From contig OX638351.1 of assembly GCA_951813565.1 (NCBI GenBank), forward strand, positions 2,432,001-2,496,000: a stretch of 64,000 bases of DNA, given 5' to 3'. Source of the stretch: an uncultured Poribacteria bacterium (GTDB lineage Bacteria > Poribacteria > WGA-4E > WGA-3G). Positions 2,398 to 62,543 of this stretch are shown one piece after another (the stretch's first letter is position 1; the number at the start of each line of letters is the position of its first letter). A program made the translations under genes and the position numbers. Below the pieces are notes generated by a model. The model did no database searches and was not told the origin of the DNA. It saw only the letters and a program-made list of their open reading frames with translations.

Positions 2398-2536
2398 AAA
2401 AGACTTTTAAGTTAAACTTTTTATGGTAGATTTTAGAATTACTTGGACACTCTGCACCCGCGAGATGAATCAACGCCGAATGCGCGTGGTAGAATAAGCG
2501 TTTGGTTTTCTGCATAATCTGTCACTAACTACTACC

Positions 2537-5389: not shown

Positions 5390-5399
5390 TTCAGAGTAT

Positions 5400-5761
5400 G
5401 GGTGTGTAAATATTTGGTTACATAGGTTCAATTTGCAATGATTACGCGGCGTTTTCCACTGTAGAGCGGGGTCCCTGTGCCCCATGCCGTCAATTTAAGG
5501 ATATACCCTCTTGTGGGAGGGGTTTTCAACCCCGATAAAACATATAAATCGGGCTTATAAAGCCCTCCCACAAGAGGCAATCTGGTAATTGTGTGCTTAA
5601 ATTGACGCCTATGGGCGGGGTCCCTGTGCCCCGCCACTGTGCAGGACGTGCCATGCAACAGGCAGGCACCAAATCAACGGTCCGAATGCCTTTTGGCATT
5701 CCCCGGAGACCCGCCCCTTCAATAGGAGTTGTGCGGATTTCTACAAAAACTTTACACACCC
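5400..5761. mobile_element. Composite MITE (GGGTGTGTAAA TIR) containing nested REPs, a second MITE and a hairpin unit
   Basis: 11-bp TIR; TCAGAGTAT duplication at 5391-5399 and 5762-5770; inverted near-identical copy at 62146..62543. Confidence 0.85.
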
Positions 5762-5855
5762 TCAGAGTATTTCAGCTCTTGACTTATTTCTGAGAAATGG
5801 TATTATTTCATAATACTCTTAATCTGAAAACACTAATATGTGGTAGGAGAAGGAA

Positions 5856-13655: not shown

Positions 13656-13808
13656 GCAGCATGCCATACGGGGAATGCCATAAGGCATTCGGACCCGGTG
13701 AATGACTAAAGACGAATGCGCTTGGTAGAATACGCTTTTGGTATTCTACATGATTCGCCATGATTCATACCGTTGATTTCTTGATTTGGCGCATGCTGCG
13801 TTGATTCA
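13656..13808. repeat. Nested stack of AATCAAC-hairpin units inserted in a REP
   Basis: Flanks GGGGTTGAAACCC|CTCCCAC reconstitute a REP; near-identical stack at 18414..18566; inner part also at 51905..51990. Confidence 0.8.
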
Positions 13809-18119: not shown

Positions 18120-18685
18120 GTAGGTTGGGTAGAGCGCAGCGAAACCCATAAATCAACGGTATGAATGCCTGAATCAACGCCAAATGCGCTTTTTGGCATT
18201 TGGCGGGTTTTCAACCCCGATTTCTTCTCTATGAGAAGTATTCAACTATGAGAAATCAATATATCGGGCTTCCAAAGCCCTCCCACAAGAAAAAAATCAG
18301 CAACTTAAGTATATACCTTCTTGTGGGAGTGAATCAACGCCAAATGCGCTTTTTGGCATTTATCGGGTTTTCAACCCCGCTGAATGCCTACACGCGCATT
18401 CAGCGTTGATTTGGCAGCATGCCGGACGGGGAATGCCATAAGGCATTCGGACCCGGTGAATGACTAAAGACGAATGCGCTTGGTAGAATACGCTTTTGGT
18501 ATTCTACATGATTCGCCATGATTCATACCTTTGATTTCTTGATTTGGCGCATGCTGCGTTGATTTGGATTTAACAGTTTGAGTCTCACAAAATCGGGCGG
18601 ACAAGGTCTCCCTCCCACAAGAGACAATCTGGTAATTATGTGCTTAAGTTGACACCTATGGGGTAGAGCGCAGGGAAACCCAACA
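18120..18685. repeat. Dense cluster of REPs, a GTCAACTTAAG-type MITE and AATCAAC-hairpin units
   Basis: Units at 18149, 18170-18204, 18330-18364, 18379-18413, 18414-18566; CAACTTAAG...CTTAAGTTGAC IR. Confidence 0.8.
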
Positions 18686-36056: not shown

Positions 36057-37279
36057 TAATGAACTTTGACAATCAAACGGGGTAATGTTATGATGGTATA
36101 ATCCAACATAAAAGGAGTATACCCTGGCAAAACAAAGAGAACTCATTCGGACAGAAGAAGAAAAACAGGAACTGATTGAATATCGAGATCATCACGACCG
36201 TCCTGATGTAAGAGAAAAAGCTGCTGCGTTGTTGAAAATAGCCGAAGGTGTTTCGGCACACTGGGTTTCGACCTATGGGTTACTCAAACGCCGCAAACCT
36301 GATACCATTTACAGATGGTTGAATATATATGACGAAGAAGGTTTTGATGGGTTAATCCAGCGGCAGCATGGCGGAGCAAGACAGCGATTTTCAAAAAAAA
36401 AGAAGAACTATTAGAACGTGTGCGCCAAACCCCAGATGAAGTTGTGGATAAAGCGAAAGGCGTTTCTACTGATGCGCCTATCCCAAGTCGTTGGACGCTT
36501 CGGACGCTGCGTGCGAGTCTTGATTGGTTAGAAGGTTACACGCTGAGTGGTGTATATAGAGTGGTGTCTCGTTGTGGTTTGCGTCTTCGCTCAGGTCGCG
36601 TGCAGCAGTATAGTCCGGATCCTGAGTATGCGGCGAAAGTATCACATCTATGTTCCTGTTTACAGCAGATCGTTCGCAATCGTGGTAAACAAGAACTGGT
36701 ATTTCTTGATGAGATGGGGTATTCTCGCTGGTCTGAAGCTGGACGGGTTTGGATACAAGCACCTCCGGGAAGTATTCCGGTGGCAGGTTGTGATGGAAAT
36801 AATCAGCAATGGCGGATCATTGGTGCGCTGAATGCGTTGACGGGACAGGTATGCTATCTTGATAACTACATTGTAGGGCGTGCCAAAGTGATTGAAATGT
36901 ATCAGAAGTTGACACAAGTATATCCGCAAGCAGAAACGCTTTATGTTGTTCAAGACAACTGGTCGATCCACAAACATCCGGATGTGCTTGATGCGTTATC
37001 AGAGTTGCCACAGATTGCGCCTGTTTGGCTACCGACTTATGCGCCGTGGTTGAACCCGATTGAGAAGTTATGGAGATGGCTGCGGGTTGATGTGTTTAAG
37101 ATGCATCGTTTTGTGAGCCAGTGGGAGGCGTTCAGAGCCCGGGTGAATAGATTTCTGGATCAATTTGCCACCGGTTCGGATGACTTACTCCGTTATGTAG
37201 GACTGAAAGGCGATGGGCTATTAGCTAACGCTTGTAGACCCATTTAGATTTTACCCAACTTGAACGTCAAAGTTCATTA
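36057..37279 (+). mobile_element. IS630 family element (orfA ~36124-36414, orfB 36420-37247, -1 frameshift at an A9 run)
   Basis: CTAATGAACTTTGAC 15-bp perfect IR including TA ends; DEMG, DNWSIH, WLNPIEKLW DDE motifs; orfA begins with CTG where the sister copy has ATG. Confidence 0.9.
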
Positions 37280-41683: not shown

Positions 41684-42556
41684 CAGCGTATCTCATAAAT
41701 AGCAAAAAACATTAGATTGTCTTTTAATTATGGATCATTTCTGTTAAACTATTGTCCAGTATATATAATAGTTAGGAGATGATTTGAATGGAACTGAGTG
41801 ATAAAGAGTGGCAAATCTTGGAACCGCTGATGCCAGCACTTTCAACTGGACAAAAGGGGAGGCCCTGGCGTGAGAACCGAGAAGTGTTAGATGGCATACT
41901 CTGGGTGTTGCGGACAGGGGCACCTTGGCGGGATTTACCGAAGAAGTATCCGCCGTATCAAACGTGTCATCGTCGTTTTCAACAATGGTCTTCGGATGGC
42001 ACACTTAAAAAGGTGGGCACAACGATCACAGAAAAACTTGAGAAACGCCGTCACCTGAATATGAGTGAATGCAGCATTAATGCGAAGTTCGTTGCAGCAA
42101 AAAAAGGGTTTGTGTGTAGGAAAGACGAAGTGTGGCAAAGGGACAAAACTGGTAGCGATTACAGATAAGCGTGGCAGACCTGTGAGTGTTTTGATTGCGA
42201 GTGCCTCCTGCCATGAAGTCCGTTTGGTTGAACCGGCATTGGATGCGTGTTGGACTTCAGAACCGCCAGGAGTGTTGATAGGAGACAAAGCCTATGACTC
42301 GGATCCTTTAGATGCGTCTTTGCGGTGTCGTGGCACTGAAATGATAGCGCCCCATAAAAAGAATCGGAAGCGTCCTGCTACACAGGATGGTCGTCTACGC
42401 CGGTATAAACGCCGTTTCAAAGTGGAGCGTTTTTTCAGTTGGTGTGAAGACTTTCGGCGTTTGGTAGTGCGTTGGGAATATCATGCTGAAAACTATTTAG
42501 GGTTTGTGCTTCTGGCATGTCTACGGATGTTAATGAGGTATTTATGAGATACGCTG
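41684..42556 (+). mobile_element. IS5 family (IS427-like) element, two ORFs 41788-42168 and ~42100-42547
   Basis: CAGCGTATCTCATAAATA TIR with TA flanks; LRTGAPWRDLP, GDKAYDS, YKRR..VERFF; AAAAAAAG slippery site. Confidence 0.92.
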
Positions 42557-42760
42557 TATAAATAACCCTGATTCCTATGACAGAGGGGTCAATTATCGGC
42601 TTATTACCTATTTTAGTCGAAATGTCGCGAGTTGGAGCTCGCTTGGACAGGAAGAAACTTTTGAAAGAAGTTAGAAACTGTTGGAAAATTGAATGACTCT
42701 GAGTTCAGGTATTCCATATCTTTCCATACAATCACTAAAGTTTGGACAATATTATTAAAT

Positions 42761-43873
42761 TGAGGGTGTTTCATAAATAATAGTTGTCAAAAGTCAGGAT
42801 ACTGGGTATTCTTTCATTTTATATCACATAACTTGAAGGAGATACCCATGCAGTATCCTGACATGAGAGAGTATATCACATTTCTGTTTTCAATGTTAGA
42901 CGAGTTCTTGATATCTCAAGAAGATGTCTCAAAAAGAGGTAGACCCCAGACTTATCCGGATGCTTCGCTCATCGTCTTTTACACCGTTATGACGCTCAAG
43001 GGGATCACGGCTATGCGTGCCCAGCAGATTTATTTGTTTCATCATCCACTCTGGCTTGAAAGATGTCGACTGCCAGCATGTCCGTCTCACGTGGCGCTTG
43101 GTCGCAGATATAAGGCGTTGATGCCTAAACTCAAAGCGTTCACTGAATACATCGCAGCCTCTCAGTTCGCTCGGGAAGCCGGGTTTCTTCAAGAAGTCGT
43201 TTACGAAGATAAAAGCCTGTTCAAAGCTGCGGGGCCCGTCTGGCATCAGAAGGATCGTCTCAACGGCTATCTCCCTAAAGGCTTGCGAGGTGTTGATAAA
43301 ACTGCCACGTGGTCTAAAAGCGGATATCACGGATGGGTTTATGGATATGGACTCCATCTCACCAGCATCCGTAACGGCTTTCCAGTGATGTTTCAGGTGC
43401 TACCTGCCAACGTTAACGAGCGGAAAGTGTTGGATACTAAAAAAGACCGACTTATTGAAAAAGGCGTGCGATGTATCGTTGCTGATAACGGATATATTGA
43501 TAAAAAACGCACCGCAGCTTTTGCCGAAGCCCAAGTGCTTTTGCTAACCCCGAAGACGGCTTTAGCAGAAGCTAACGAACTCTTAGGCGCAGACCCACTC
43601 TATACCGCAACACAAGTTGCCACATGGCAGGTCGCACGAAAAACTGCGATTGAACCTGTCTTTGATTTGTTGAGCAAACTCTTGTCAATCACGGGGGCGC
43701 ATAAACCTTTACCGCTGCGAAATCTGGCGTATGTTTCCACCTTTTTGGGCATGGGTATACTGTTGCTGCAACTTTCAATGTTAATGAATGTCCGATGCGG
43801 GTTACCCACGCGAAATGTTACCTATATCAAAACTGTCTTTCGATAAAAAATAGCGATTTATGAAACACCCTCA
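42761..43873 (+). mobile_element. IS982-like DDE element (transposase 42848..43846)
   Basis: TGAGGGTGTTTCATAAAT 18-bp TIR, ATTAAAT flanking repeats; GWVYGYGLHL, ADNGY, R.AIEPVF; family assignment tentative. Confidence 0.8.
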
Positions 43874-43954
43874 ATTAAATAACAGGGGTTTCATAATGCC
43901 AGGGTCTAAAGTTTAGTCGAAAGTTGTGTAAACCACAACAAGTTTCCATGACTA

Positions 43955-45186
43955 AGTGGTTTACTCGCTAAGTTTTAGGCATATTTTCAATCACAGAACC
44001 GTAGGGTCCTAACTGGTATAAAGGTTGCTTTTGCGGTGTCTCTTCCAGTGGTAAGGGCGTTTATGTGCGTTCCACCAACACACCGCACTATTCAGCGCAT
44101 CTGTCAGTTCCTCTTGCGTCTCAAACCTTCGCCCTTTCAGTGCCAAAGACTTCAACTGTCTCCACCACGGTTCTATCAAGTTCAACCAATACGCATATTT
44201 CGGAATAAACTGCACCCCAATCTCCGGCCACGCCAACAAAGCAGTCTTCACATTGTGACTGTGGTGAGTAGAAAGATTATCTTCAATCAGAAGCCACTTG
44301 TCTGATGGAAACTTCTCTATGACTTTCTCTATTAACGCAATATGGCTCACACTATCCCTCCGCTCCGAAATTACTATCTCCGCTTGACCCGTTGCCGGTT
44401 CAAACGCACCATGAACCCACACTTTTCCACGGCGACCATAGTCCGGGTCATAAGTCGCACGATCCGAACCTTGTTGCCAAACTTCACCCGGATACGTCTT
44501 AGCCGCTACCGGCCCCATTTCGTCAATACAAATTACACGCGTTTGAGGTGGACGATTGACATACGCCGCTATGATGGACCCTTTTTTGGACAAACGCCGC
44601 GTCTTGTTTCTTCGCTTCACGAAACCAACTTTGTTGACGCTTCCAATGCAATCCCTCTTCTTTCAGCCACTCCCAGATCGTTGAATCAGAAAGATGAATA
44701 CCTTGCCTCTCTTTAAACGCAGTTTGCAACCGGACGAGTGTCCACAACTCAAACGGATAACCGAGACTGCGCGGTTTTCGCAACGCTAAATCTATCAGTT
44801 GACCCCGCACCTCATCTGAATGGATGCGCGGTTTACCACTTTTCGGTTTATCGGTGAGCCCTGAGATACCCGCTTCATTGAAGCGTTTGACCCAACACGC
44901 ACCAGAGTTGCTTGATTTGAAACCTGCCTGTTGTGCTGCTTGGGTGGCTGTGAGCGTCTTATCATCAAGCATACTCACAACCAACTTCGCACGCTGCACC
45001 ATCCGATAGGCGTGTGTGCGTGAACTCGCAACTGTTCTGAGTTCTGATTCTTCTTCTTCACTGACTTCGCGTAAATGATGCACTCGCTTTCCCATCTAAA
45101 TGCTCCTGTCCATTTAATTCAATAGATAGAAGAAGTATACCATAAATAGAAAAATAATGACATAAAATCTTGGCGAGTCAACCACT
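43955..45186 (-). mobile_element. IS630 family element (orfA from 45095, orfB to 44009, frameshift at AAAAAAG)
   Basis: Imperfect TIR AGTGGTT(T/G)ACTCGC(T/C)AAG; DEMG, DNLSTH, WLNLIEPWW. Confidence 0.88.
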
Positions 45187-48762: not shown

Positions 48763-49023
48763 GTTCTCCTTCCATAAGTTCGGGTAATAATCTTTGCAAT
48801 TTTGAACCCGATTTCAATACGTCATTATGTAATTATCGTATCATGTAAAACGCAAATAGACAAGTGAAATTTATAGACCGTTCTTTTCTTCTGAAACATC
48901 CTCAACAAATGTTTGCAGTCTATTTCAATTGACACACTGTGTGAAATCTGTTATATTAAATTTATTCCGATTGTAACAAGTAAAAGGCAGTTTTGCCATA
49001 TATTTCTTTCTTATAACCTATCA

Positions 49024-49362
49024 ATGCGTAACACACAACTGAGAGAATTAGAATTCTACAGAACTCAAAATGGCAGAGAACCTTTCACTGAATGGTTTGA
49101 ATCAATCCGAGATAAAAATGTACTTAACAGAATTGAACGAAGAATTAACCGACTTGAAAGTGGTAATTTGGGTGACTGTAGTCCTGTTGGCGAAGGCGTT
49201 TTTGAACTACGACTCCACTTCGGTCCCGGTTATCGCATCTATTTTGGAGAAGTTGCAAACACGGTAATTGTCCTACTTTGTGGTGGTGATAAATCGTCAC
49301 AGCAGCGTGACATTGAACGCGCAAAAACTTACTGGTTAGAATATAAGGGAACACAACGATGA
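49024..49362 (+). CDS. Type II TA toxin, RelE/HigB (addiction module killer) family
   Basis: GNLGD..VGEGVFELRLHFGPGYRIYF..LLCGGDKSSQQRDI. Confidence 0.9.
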   Translation: MRNTQLRELEFYRTQNGREPFTEWFESIRDKNVLNRIERRINRLESGNLGDCSPVGEGVFELRLHFGPGYRIYFGEVANTVIVLLCGGDKSSQQRDIERAKTYWLEYKGTQR

Positions 49363-49682
49363 GAAAATTTCGAAAATGGCACGATTATCTAATTGAACGT
49401 CTTGCCGCAAACAAAGAAGAGGCAATTGGTTATCTTGATGTAGCGTTGGAAGAATATCAAGAAGATGGTGATACATCCTTCTTTCTAAAAGGTGTTAGAA
49501 ATGTAGTAGAAGCGCAGGGTGGTGTTTCCGAGCTTGCCAAGAAGACGAAGATGTCTCCAGATGCCTTGCAAAAGATACTCTCAAGTGATAAGGCACCGCA
49601 TGTTGACAAGTTCGGAACCATTCTGAATGCACTCGGATGTCGATTGTCTGTTGTGCCGTTAGAAAACGAACATCCTTCATAA
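49359..49682 (+). CDS. Addiction module antidote (HTH antitoxin)
   Basis: YLDVALE..GD..FLKGVRNVVEAQGGVSELAK; ATGA overlap with toxin. Confidence 0.88.
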   Translation: MRKFRKWHDYLIERLAANKEEAIGYLDVALEEYQEDGDTSFFLKGVRNVVEAQGGVSELAKKTKMSPDALQKILSSDKAPHVDKFGTILNALGCRLSVVPLENEHPS

Positions 49683-49736: not shown

Positions 49737-49803
49737 ATGCATAACACACAACCGAGAGAACTACAGTTCTACCGGACTCCAAACGGTCAGGTGCCTTTTA
49801 CTA
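49737..49803 (+). pseudogene. 5' stub of a second RelE/HigB toxin paralog truncated by IS5
   Basis: MHNTQPRELQFYRTPNGQVPFT versus MRNTQLRELEFYRTQNGREPFT. Confidence 0.75.
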
Positions 49804-50676
49804 CAGCGTATCTCATAAATAGCAAAAAACATTAGATTGTCTTTTAATTATGGATCATTTCTGTTAAACTATTGTCCAGTATATATAATAGTTAGGAGAT
49901 GATTTGAATGGAACTGAGTGATAAAGCGTGGCAAATCTTGGAACCGCTGATGCCAGCACTTTCAACTGGACAAAAGGGGAGGCCCTGGCGTGAGAACCGA
50001 GAAGTGTTAGATGGCATACTCTGGGTGTTGCGGACAGGGGCACCTTGGCGGGATTTACCGAAGAAGTATCCGCCGTATCAAACGTGTCATCGTCGTTTTC
50101 AACAATGGTCTTCGGATGGCACACTTAAAAAGGTGGGCACAACGATCACAGAAAAACTTGAGAAACGCCGTCACCTGAATATGAGTGAATGCAGCATTAA
50201 TGCGAAGTTCGTTGCAGCAAAAAAAGGGTTTGTGTGTAGGAAAGACGAAGTGTGGCAAAGGGACAAAACTGGTAGCGATTACAGATAAGCGTGGCAGACC
50301 TGTGAGTGTTTTGATTGCGAGTGCCTCCTGCCATGAAGTCCGTTTGGTTGAACCGGCATTGGATGCGTGTTGGACTTCAGAACCGCCAGGAGTGTTGATA
50401 GGAGACAAAGCCTATGACTCGGATCCTTTAGATGTGTCTTTGCGGTGTCGTGGCACTGAAATGATAGCACCCCATAAAAAGAATCGGAAGCGTCCTGCTA
50501 CACAGGATGGTCGTCTACGCCGGTATAAACGCCGTTTCAAAGTGGAGCGTTTTTTCAGTTGGTGTGAAGACTTTCGGCGTTTGGTAGTGCGTTGGGAATA
50601 TCATGCTGAAAACTATTTAGGGTTTGTGCTTCTGGCATGTCTACGGATGTTAATGAGGTATTTATGAGATACGCTG
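49804..50676 (+). mobile_element. IS5 family (IS427-like) element, second copy
   Basis: Near-identical to 41684..42556, with a few substitutions. Confidence 0.92.
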
Positions 50677-51849: not shown

Positions 51850-52044
51850 CTTGTGCCTCCTCATTATTTGAGTAGGTTAATTGTTTTGACAGACTACAGA
51901 AATAGGTGGGGAATGCCTAAAGACGAATGCGCTTGGTAGAATACGCTTTTGGTATTCTACATGATTCGCCATGATTCATACCGTTGATTAGGTATCTATA
52001 AGTTTTAACTATCCCTGTAGAGGTCGCTGGTCTCTAAAGTAACA

Positions 52045-52326: not shown

Positions 52327-52586
52327 TAGGAGTGACCTCCCGGTCGCGACTTTTCAGCAAAAACAAGTAAAATGCCCAAAACTAAATAACCATGCGCTAA
52401 AGCAACGGGGTCTTATAGTAAAATCTAAAAATACCTGGACATTTTCTTAAGGTTAGCGGCGTTTGTAGTCGCGCAATTCATTGCGCCTCTTCTTGTAGGA
52501 GCGACCTCCCGGTCGCGACTTTTCAGCTAAAAAACAGGTAAAATGCCCAAAACTAAATAACCATGCGCTAAAGCAACGGGGTCTTA
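52327..52586. repeat. ~90-bp direct duplication (52327-52415 / 52496-52586) flanking an empty REP
   Basis: TAGGAG(T/C)GACCTCCCGGTCGCGAC...AACCATGCGCTAAAGCAACGGGGTCTTA occurs twice. Confidence 0.8.
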
Positions 52587-55828: not shown

Positions 55829-57049
55829 ATGAAATTTGACAATCAAAAAGGGTAATGTTATGATGGTGTTATCCAGCAAATAAGGAGTGCACCATGCCAA
55901 AACGACGCGAACTCGTTCTTACAGAAGGAGAAAAACAAAAACTCATTGAACATAGAGATCATCACTAACACCCCGATGTCAGAGAGAAAGCCGCTGCTCT
56001 ATTGAAAATAGCCGAGGGTGTTTCTGCACACTGCGTTGCGACCTCTGGATTGCTCAAACGCCGCAAGCCTGATACTGTCTACAACTGGTTAAATATATAT
56101 GCTGATGAAGGCTTTGATGGGTTAATCCGGCGGCGACATGGTGGTGCGAGACATCGGTTTTCAAAAAAAGAAGAGCTGATCGAACGCTTGCGCCAATCCC
56201 CTGGTGAAGTGGCGGAAAAAGTGCCAAAGGTTTTGCGGATACGCTTGCGCCGAGTCGTTGGACGCTTCGTAGGCTTCGTGAAAGTCTTGATTGGTTAGCG
56301 CCCTACACACTCAGCGGTGTGCATCGCGTGCCTTTCTCGGTGTGGTTTGCGTATTCGCTCTGGGCGTGTGCAGCAGTATAGCCCGGATGCTGCGTCCGCC
56401 AAGAAAGTCTATCACCTCTGTGATTGCTTGAGGCAAACAGCGCGTGCGCCTGACAGCCACTTGGTTGTGTTTCTTGATGAAATGGGATATAGACGGTGGC
56501 CGAAGGCAGGGCGGGTTTGGATGCAAGCCGCACCTACGGAAGTGCCGGTCGCCGGGTGTGGTGGCACCAATAATGCGCAATGGCGCGTCATTGGTGCGCT
56601 GAATACGATGACAGGTCAGGTGTGTTATCTTGACAATTACGTTGTCGGGCGTGCGAAAGTCATTGAAATGTATCAGAAGTTAACACAAGTATACCCGCAA
56701 GCAGAGACACTTTACGTTGTTCAAGACAATTGGTCGATCCACAAACATCCGGATGTGCTTGAAGCGTTATCAGAGTTGCCACAGATTGAGCCAGTTTGGC
56801 TGCCGACTTATGCGCCGTGGCTGAACCCGATTGAGAAGTTATGGCGGTGGTTGCGCCAGGATGTGTTGAAGACGCATCAATTTGGCAGTCAGGGGGAGGA
56901 GTTGAGGAGCCGGGTGAACGGATTTCTTGATCGCTTTGCGTTGGGTTCAGATACCTTACTCCGCTATGTCGGGCTGCAAGGCGATGGGCTGCTTGCTAAC
57001 GCTTGTAGACCCCTTAGACTTTACCCAACTTGAACGTCAAAACTCATTA
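55827..57049 (+). mobile_element. IS630 family element, degenerate sister of 36057..37279
   Basis: Similar TIRs and DDE motifs; in-frame TAA near 55966 and a frameshift near 56220. Confidence 0.88.
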
Positions 57050-59150: not shown

Positions 59151-59411
59151 GAGGGGTGTGCATAAATATTTGGCGCATCAACACAGACAGGGACAGACGC
59201 CAGGTGCCGCTTGATTTATAGAAATGCGTTTGTAGTCGCGCAATTCATTACCAAATCAACGCAGCATGCGCCAAATCAACGGTCCGAATACCTTATGGCA
59301 TTCCCCGTGTGGCATGCTGCGCCTCTTTGAACTTGTGGACGGAAACCCACGGCGTGTGCGGACTACCTTTAAGCGCATATTTAACATCGAAATTATTTAT
59401 GCACACCTCTC
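59151..59411. mobile_element. MITE (GAGGGGTGTGCATAAATA TIR) with 8-bp duplication, carrying a REP with nested hairpin units
   Basis: AAGTAAAT at 59143-59150 and 59412-59419. Confidence 0.78.
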
Positions 59412-62061: not shown

Positions 62062-62145
62062 TGATGTGTCTCACCGAATACGTTAAGCTTTTGATGTTTA
62101 GAGTATATCACACATAGTTGTTGCAGGCAACTTGGGTAATAGGTT

Positions 62146-62543
62146 GGGTGTGTAAAGTTTTTGTAGAAATCCGCACAACTCCTATTGTAGGGGCGGGTCT
62201 CCGGGGAATGCCAAAAGGCATTCGGACCGTTGATTTGGTGCCTGCCCGTTGCATGGCACGTCCTGCGCAGTGGCGGGGCACAGGGACCCCGCCCATAGGC
62301 GTCAATTTCAGCACACAATCACCAGATTGCCTCTTGTGGGAGGGCTTTATAAGCCCGATTTATATGTATTTATCGGGGTTGAAAACCCGCAGCATGCCAA
62401 ACGCGCATGCTGCGTTGATTCACTCCCACAAGAGGGTATATCCTTAAATTGACGGCTATGGGGCACAGGGACCCCGCCCTACAGTGGAAAACGCCGCGTA
62501 ATCATTGCAAATTGAACCTATGTAACCAAATATTTACACACCC
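62146..62543. mobile_element. Composite MITE, inverted second copy of 5400..5761 with an extra 34-bp insert
   Basis: GGGTGTGTAAA/TTTACACACCC ends; insert at 62389-62422; no flanking duplication seen. Confidence 0.85.

Follow-up and report, generated by a model that had tools for sequence, protein, structure and literature searches.

A 34-bp sequence on the minus strand at positions 62389-62422 of the window, the whole 64-kb stretch of Poribacteria DNA analysed here, is an exact insert in a REP that is itself carried by an ISKra4-type MITE. Our analysis supports a real family of 33-36-nucleotide non-autonomous units, marked by the tag AATCAAC, for which other hairpins are the targets. A first-pass annotation of the window had proposed as much, and empty and filled states are indeed present at many target classes. 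We consider it very probable that the unit is a mobile insert. It is real, abundant and mobile on an evolutionary scale, and it is among the smallest mobile-looking DNAs.

The focal unit and the repeats that hold it

Alignment of positions 5396-5770 with the reverse complement of 62131-62540, over about 360 bp, left a single 34-nucleotide gap corresponding to the unit, bounded by GGGAG and GGGTTTT and with no duplication of the target. This bears out the first-pass claim that the two MITE copies differ by exactly the unit and that the site is empty at 5519/5520, a position within the empty REP at 5513-5533 (plus strand).

The focal unit consists of two variable bases, the AATCAAC tag and a 25-nucleotide hairpin with a 9-bp stem and a 7-nucleotide loop (fold of -10.5 to -10.7 kcal/mol, z about -2.6). 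It splits a GTGG-tagged REP (62375-62429, minus strand) at the hairpin foot, where the adjoining G and the final C of the tag form a base pair that brings the folded stem to 10 bp. The same layout, with hairpins of 25-27 nucleotides, characterizes the family, and 585 of the 591 units called by the looser of our detectors are 34-36 nucleotides long. The tag is near-invariant, and the unit itself has neither terminal inverted repeats nor a target duplication. Compensatory changes are found at outer stem positions: in a set of 42 distinct 9-bp arm pairs, the only stem position left free by the detector is paired in a fraction of 0.81 versus 0.44 in shuffles (maximum 0.69), in agreement with the covariation of outer stem bases noticed at first pass.

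The MITE that holds the focal REP (62146-62543, minus strand) has 11-bp terminal inverted repeats (TIRs) in common with a 1.46-kb insertion sequence (IS) bearing an ISKra4-family transposase. Flanking duplication is absent at this copy, and the second copy (5400-5761, plus strand) lies between 9-bp target duplications at 5391-5399 and 5762-5770. Among 66 ISKra4-type end pairs 28 have 9-bp duplications, and the tag occurs in 28 of 66 TIR-bounded elements. The MITE carries the unit passively: it has TIRs and a duplication whereas the unit has neither, and for that reason the ISKra4 DDE enzyme is not the direct mover of the unit.

A second unit, of 35 nucleotides and with a bulged stem, occupies another site in the same MITE (62203-62237, minus strand), and a unit matching it is found at 5670-5704 (plus strand). 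BLAST returned 23 MITE-like copies, and 22 were compared. The focal REP site is held by 18 MITE copies, five of them empty there, the window copy with one unit, and 12 with two to five units, the added sequence in filled copies amounting to 34-171 nucleotides. The second site is filled in 11 of the same 18 copies and empty in seven, and all four filled/empty combinations occur (3, 8, 2 and 5 copies), a pattern that implies repeated gain, repeated loss or conversion. Arrays at one MITE site range from one to five units, with shared heads. The window MITE as a whole is missing from the orthologous gap in 12 relatives in which both flanks align, and the gap therefore cannot polarise the 34-bp insert. 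Two loci from other species (L180 in genome G010 and L189 in G005) contain different short elements with the same ISKra4-type ends in the gap orthologous to 62146-62543, and this intergenic position is a possible insertion hotspot for such ends.

The strict pattern matches the window six times, against 0.04 matches expected. Units that the first pass had placed at 5670-5704, 18170-18204, 18330-18364, 18379-18413, 62203-62237 and 62389-62422 were all recovered there. The one at 18330-18364 (plus strand) is of another subtype and occupies the same REP site as the focal insert, with the unit at 18379-18413 (minus strand) lying in the opposite arm of its REP. Unit sequence is also present at 18149, as annotated, but only as a 5' half (18149-18169, plus strand), broken by the inserted unit at 18170-18204 (plus strand), which has a perfect stem. 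The variant annotated at 2466 exists too, in degenerate form and interrupted by a second, sister hairpin (2466-2518, plus strand). For a second REP family, with a C^G site, the proposed empty (52465-52490, plus strand) and filled (59252-59320, plus strand) sites hold up, although the latter proved to be a nested pair, a 34-nucleotide unit with a 35-nucleotide unit in its loop, and its left flank is one base off that of the empty site. A multi-level nest of units and sister hairpins lies at 18414-18564 (minus strand), with a 98% copy at 13656-13806 and a 66% match at 51867-52017. The sister micro-unit has an AATCAT head and a 25-nucleotide hairpin with the loop reversed, and sits in the 5' arm of the main unit in place of a few of its bases. 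It is present at 18414-18564, 13656-13806 and 2466-2518, and its pattern has 93 matches genome-wide, a few of them due to chance.

The first pass had also stated that the window encodes no mobilising enzyme. This stands for Y1 enzymes and reverse transcriptases (RTs), none of which was found among the 49 window ORFs scanned, but not for DDE transposases: DDE_3 (IS630-like) and IS4/IS5-type genes lie at 36420-37247, 41788-45095, 49908-50667 and 56317-57033, some of them duplicated or in two frames. At 48913-49682 a Gp49-like gene is followed by an HTH antidote gene, likely a toxin-antitoxin pair, with a partial copy of its start at 49737-49802.

Family size and taxonomic range

The genome scan suggested at first pass gave 531 strict matches in the 5.43-Mb Ca. 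Poribacteria genome (G000), against none in reversed and complemented sequence. A strict fold-based detector called 320 units and misses imperfect stems; we replaced it with a looser detector using iterative excision, which called 591 units in 459 blocks (2 and 2 in the controls), a count that leaves out 364 family-like tags in nests that were not parsed. A scan for short inserts among repeat copies, which was not guided by the tag, peaked at 34-35 nucleotides, and 332 of 356 such events contain the tag. The units lie almost only in REPs, in their own copies and in tandem arrays. Just two of the 459 blocks fall inside ORFs of at least 200 aa, one of them seemingly a false match.

Some places in G000 have an altered arrangement. 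The tag is doubled (CAAATCAA-GAAATCAAC) at about 110 places, some with a second hairpin and some lacking one, and at least one hairpin loop consists of the 8-base tag alone; these are possibly footprints of hairpin loss. An inverted tag after some units completes a full tag-hairpin-tag palindrome (G000:C1:1460147-1460187; L075). In a CRISPR locus, cas1 has a unit on either side (G000:C1:3988851 and 3990056), one of these being between an RT gene and cas1.

All 24 same-genus genomes have the pattern, with 11-386 matches each, and 16 genomes from other families of the order have zero to three matches per genome, which is the chance level. Among the matches listed in a scan of GTDB, 78 of 80 loci are from Ca. 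Poribacteria and the other two are bacterial. Searches of viral contigs, phages and plasmids did not find the unit, and Rfam gave no match for either the window or the focal locus.

From 60 loci tested, chosen for having the unit, we obtained 12 orthologous pairs, nine within the same species in other metagenome assemblies and three with other species that have different repeat clusters. The unit is identical at all nine same-species loci, which rules out the assembly artefact or chimera raised at first pass. The first pass had looked to presence/absence polymorphism across strains, and this did not appear: none of the nine same-species orthologous loci differs, in a small set picked for unit presence. 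Across species, 10 of 80 loci span a G000 site; one shows a 33-nucleotide gap, in a candidate orthologue only, and two show two versus three units. Contigs from four public runs (four studies), compared with a 20-kb stretch containing five parsed unit blocks, break at the repeats. In G000, 103 blocks are bounded by two unique 25-nucleotide flanks.

Insertion junctions and candidate enzymes

The 459 blocks comprise 227 without an exact empty partner, 154 that are clean and 78 with lost or changed target bases, so that 154 of the 232 resolvable blocks are clean, most of them at C^G with a unit ending in C. Counted as junction contexts, 50 are clean and 30 changed. No target duplication was seen at resolvable insertions. 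The earlier claim of precise insertion without duplication is thus upheld as to duplication and not as to uniform precision, given the 78 changed blocks and the variable tag-side bases. About four of the 78 are clean 33-nucleotide inserts in another register; the remainder, called against exact empty partners rather than against every alternative empty variant of each target class, may in part be REP variants that predate the insertion, and one such pre-existing variant was seen in a MITE copy (one class). Loss is best supported at the second MITE site: one T present in empty copies is missing from every filled copy, and no empty copy lacking that T was seen.

On the hairpin side the junction is fixed, with G as the next base in 417 of 459 blocks and in 106 of 120 metagenome loci. 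In 324 of 459 blocks GG comes next, against a genome GG frequency of 0.039, and the G is found even at sites whose empty version reads A, C or TT there. On the tag side the junction is ragged, with one or two variable bases and zero to three target bases lost. Left flanks are many and different, and the last flank base predicts the next two bases in the 591 units (C followed by CA, 367; G by TG, CG or GG, 139; A by GA or TA, 48), which fits microhomology; a single target class carries GA, TA, CA, TG and CG before the tag. Read on the opposite strand, the target ends in C or CC and is followed by the hairpin, the tag and one or two variable bases.

Throughout the genus, RAYT genes are flanked by the REP families that the unit targets. 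By sequence and flanks, the 10 Y1 matches in G000 are five IS605 tnpA, two IS200-like and three RAYT-like genes (one with a stop); an NCBIfam check covers one IS200-like and one RAYT-like gene. The two intact RAYTs lie at G000:242023-242493 and 5070803-5071249, and an IS200-like Y1 gene at 3098010. None of the 10 has the unit as its own flanking pair, and the five IS605 tnpA loci have different, unrelated upstream ends with no unit nearby. A search for a Y1, RAYT or RT gene flanked by the unit, as suggested at first pass, was likewise negative for the RAYT loci of the genus: none of the 27 scored (three short loci of 30 were dropped) has the unit on both sides, and four have a one-side match. 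Since the target REPs flank RAYTs but the unit itself brackets none of those scored, one unit appears to use many RAYT/REP pairs. RAYTs exceed the cut-off in 25 of 40 genus genomes, and Y1 genes are present in all five high-copy genomes tested. G000 has two RT genes, one beside cas1 and the other the Drt4 defence RT, a stand-alone anti-phage enzyme (G000:C1:811749-813284; L012) over the NCBIfam cut-off.

Other candidate movers were rejected. No IS110 gene was found in G000 with PF02371 or PF01548, which matched in six of 14 controls, and no integron integrase exceeded the TIGR02249 cut-off in 41 genomes, nor in 14 control genomes. Integration by Cas1 duplicates a repeat; G000 has two cas1 genes, and the repeat duplication expected of Cas1 was not seen at the unit. 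The three CRISPR repeats found in G000 are without the tag. A single-copy, 207-aa Xer-like tyrosine recombinase consisting of the catalytic domain only (G000:C1:4771354-4771977, L196; L197-L213) is present at 78-95% identity in 17 of 24 genus genomes, and was set aside because it has a palindrome of its own and was not found in seven genomes holding 40-137 units. The palindrome, nearly invariant over 36 bp and lacking the tag, lies just upstream of the gene, and the two are probably a one-enzyme dif/Xer system; the other families have full-length XerC/D-like matches. The cognate enzyme was not found among the Y1, RT, IS110, integron integrase and 207-aa recombinase genes examined.

Routes of insertion, known relatives and significance

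The reading that we tentatively favor, as possible rather than probable, makes the unit a non-autonomous micro-element, a parasite of RAYT/REP systems that is inserted by copying at a nick made by a RAYT in the REP. The cut would be made by a resident RAYT in single-stranded DNA, within its REP or next to it, and would follow a C (mostly CC) on the strand where the hairpin precedes the tag. The free 3' end would pair by one to three bases with the G-run behind the hairpin of a donor copy, host polymerase would copy hairpin and tag and halt one or two bases beyond the tag, and the new end would be rejoined via 1-3-base microhomology. Every insertion would re-create a C/G site from which arrays and nests could grow, and filled sites would then spread passively by ISKra4 MITE and REP amplification. 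We infer the nick, the enzyme and the copying steps of this route; the slightly ragged junctions suggest insertion by copying at a nick and not by cut-and-paste. Nick-primed copying would explain both the lost bases and the variable tag side, because the 3' C or CC pairs with the G-run and the far end closes by microhomology.

Published RAYT chemistry fits such a route. Ton-Hoang et al. (PMC3333891) report that E. coli TnpA-REP cuts CC|T inside CTAC and propose the 3'-OH as a primer for host polymerase. For a group 3 enzyme, Corneloup et al. (PMC8266576) report cuts at C|T and C|A, and at C|C when a GTGG guide is present; a free 3'-OH oligonucleotide can resolve the protein link of that enzyme. 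Several observations weigh against nick-primed copying. Clean insertions are most often at C|G, a cut absent from those reported for RAYTs in the accessible parts of these papers (PMC3333891, PMC8266576), and the model accounts neither for these sites nor for the halt one or two bases past the tag. RAYTs also occur in 11 of 16 other-family genomes that lack the unit, and the RAYT query found none in seven of the 24 unit-bearing genus genomes. A tag that varies so little suggests a recogniser dedicated to it, some of the 78 changed blocks may be older REP variants, and many copies descend from a few events spread by the MITE. Orientation counts (89 antisense versus 66 sense; 212 versus 175 on irregular skew) are without strand bias and give no support to a single-stranded DNA route.

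Excision and reinsertion of a fixed single-stranded unit by an HUH enzyme of IS200/IS605 or RAYT type, cutting C|N at both ends, with changed junctions owed to earlier or later mutations, seems to us rather unlikely. It accommodates the lack of duplication, the 154 clean blocks of 232, most at C^G with a unit ending in C, and the four filled/empty combinations (3, 8, 2 and 5 of 18 MITE copies), as repeated gain or precise loss would give; the tag at the hairpin foot is also guide-like (PMC7290912). An HUH enzyme that joins fixed ends would account for the clean C^G sites, but other junctions are left unexplained: the IS200/IS605-type insertion put forward at first pass predicts neither the T lost from all filled copies of one MITE site, with no empty copy lacking it, nor the varying tag-side bases. 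Moreover, the unit has a single hairpin instead of two ends, no Y1 gene is flanked by it, and the IS605 ends of G000 are unrelated. We also hold it unlikely that there is no dedicated mobility, and that a modest number of founder captures, made by replication template-switching at hairpins, were multiplied through the ISKra4 MITE, amplification of REPs, gene conversion and slippage between tags. The tag in 28 of 66 TIR-bounded elements, the one to five units with shared heads at one site and the identity of same-species loci (none of nine differing) are what such spread would produce, and conversion can yield the four-state MITE pattern. Set against this, the same two end rules recur in 50 clean and 30 changed contexts, in many unrelated REP families and in several species, and the near-invariant tag with compensatory stem changes points to selection on the unit itself.

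Target-primed reverse transcription gives one fixed and one ragged junction, the outcome seen here, and G000 has two RT genes. Reverse transcription of an RNA copy of the unit at a target nick is nevertheless quite improbable: only 10 of 24 genus genomes yielded an RT, and G006, G012 and G017, with 379, 233 and 298 units, were not among them; the two RTs of G000 are Drt4 and the one beside cas1; and stem mismatches on the tag strand are not skewed to G-U (7 G-T versus 13 A-C, distinct pairs). Very improbable, in our estimate, is a tyrosine recombinase that acts on the folded unit as integron integrases act on attC. The tag matches the integron core consensus at six of seven positions, the tag-hairpin-G order resembles a cassette end, and the Xer-like recombinase is conserved in 17 of 24 genus genomes. 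However, no integron integrase was over the cut-off in 41 genomes (nor in the 14 controls), the palindrome of the 207-aa enzyme is without the tag, the enzyme was not found in seven genomes with 40-137 units, and right flanks are GG, not TT.

The closest parallel is in Nostocaceae, where Elhai et al. in 2008 reportedly described SDR1-8, which are said to be self-nesting hairpins of 21-27 nucleotides; an RNA copy reverse-transcribed at a nick was reportedly proposed as their route. The small size stressed at first pass stands, at 33-36 nucleotides, but the kind has this precedent. Like SDRs, the AATCAAC unit is a very small, lineage-restricted hairpin with compensatory changes, inserted in other repeats and in itself, and empty sites exist. 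Unlike them, it is longer, belongs to a different phylum, and has a fixed 7-base tag, RAYT-linked REP targets and ragged tag-side junctions. By analogy with descriptions of SDRs, rather than with their sequences, the unit appears to work like them. SDRs are described as tens of bases long, with compensatory changes in the hairpin, lineage-restricted and inserted into other repeats (PMC4390886, PMC5861425), and SDR5 as inserting precisely into HIP1 (PMC4390886).

The unit does not fall among REPs, PATEs, MITEs or attC sites. As with the REPs, BIMEs and REPINs associated with RAYTs (PMC3333891, PMC8266576, PMC3116915, PMC3733652, PMC6006769), it is a tag plus hairpin of 20-40 nucleotides, high in copy number, extragenic and clustered; REPs inside other palindromes and REPINs inside REPINs are reported in parts of that literature (PMC3733652, PMC3116915). 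It differs in having the tag AATCAAC, fixed by definition of the detector, instead of GTAG, GTGG or CGTC, with no GTAG foot, in being a singlet or head-to-tail instead of an inverted doublet, and in invading REPs rather than being one, with none of 27 RAYTs flanked by it on both sides. With IS200/IS605 elements and PATEs (PMC7290912), it shares a hairpin basis and the lack of inverted repeats and target duplication. PATEs are there said to keep both ends (271 nucleotides), and IS200/IS605 elements to insert 3' of a fixed tetra- or pentanucleotide (PMC7290912). The unit, in contrast, has one hairpin and no left/right pair matching a resident IS200/IS605 element, and shows many left flanks, a G rule of one to three bases and occasional target loss (78 of 232 blocks changed). 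In the literature searched, mostly outside subscription texts and supplements, we found no description of the AATCAAC family, which is a fresh variant of a poorly understood, already known kind of tiny nested hairpin repeat.

The spread of REPs and of SDR-sized repeats is a long-open question. The AATCAAC family offers hundreds of natural empty/filled junction pairs with clear rules for both ends, and the genome that carries it also encodes candidate enzymes, which makes the mechanism testable with oligonucleotides and purified RAYT. In its broadest form, which we regard as rather doubtful, the unit would be a hyperparasite of domesticated transposases: an enzyme-less 34-base element that hijacks the nicks of many RAYTs and is copied by host polymerase, a primer-capture mobility distinct from cut-and-paste, peel-and-paste and retrotransposition that may be a general route of tiny nested hairpins in other phyla. 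If nick-primed copying is false, the family would still be a marker repeat specific to the genus, one at which short-read assemblies of these sponge symbionts break. If it is true, the unit would set a lower size limit for selfish DNA, would add a third layer of parasitism (IS, MITE, REP, micro-unit), and would hint at a way of writing short structured DNA at a nick.
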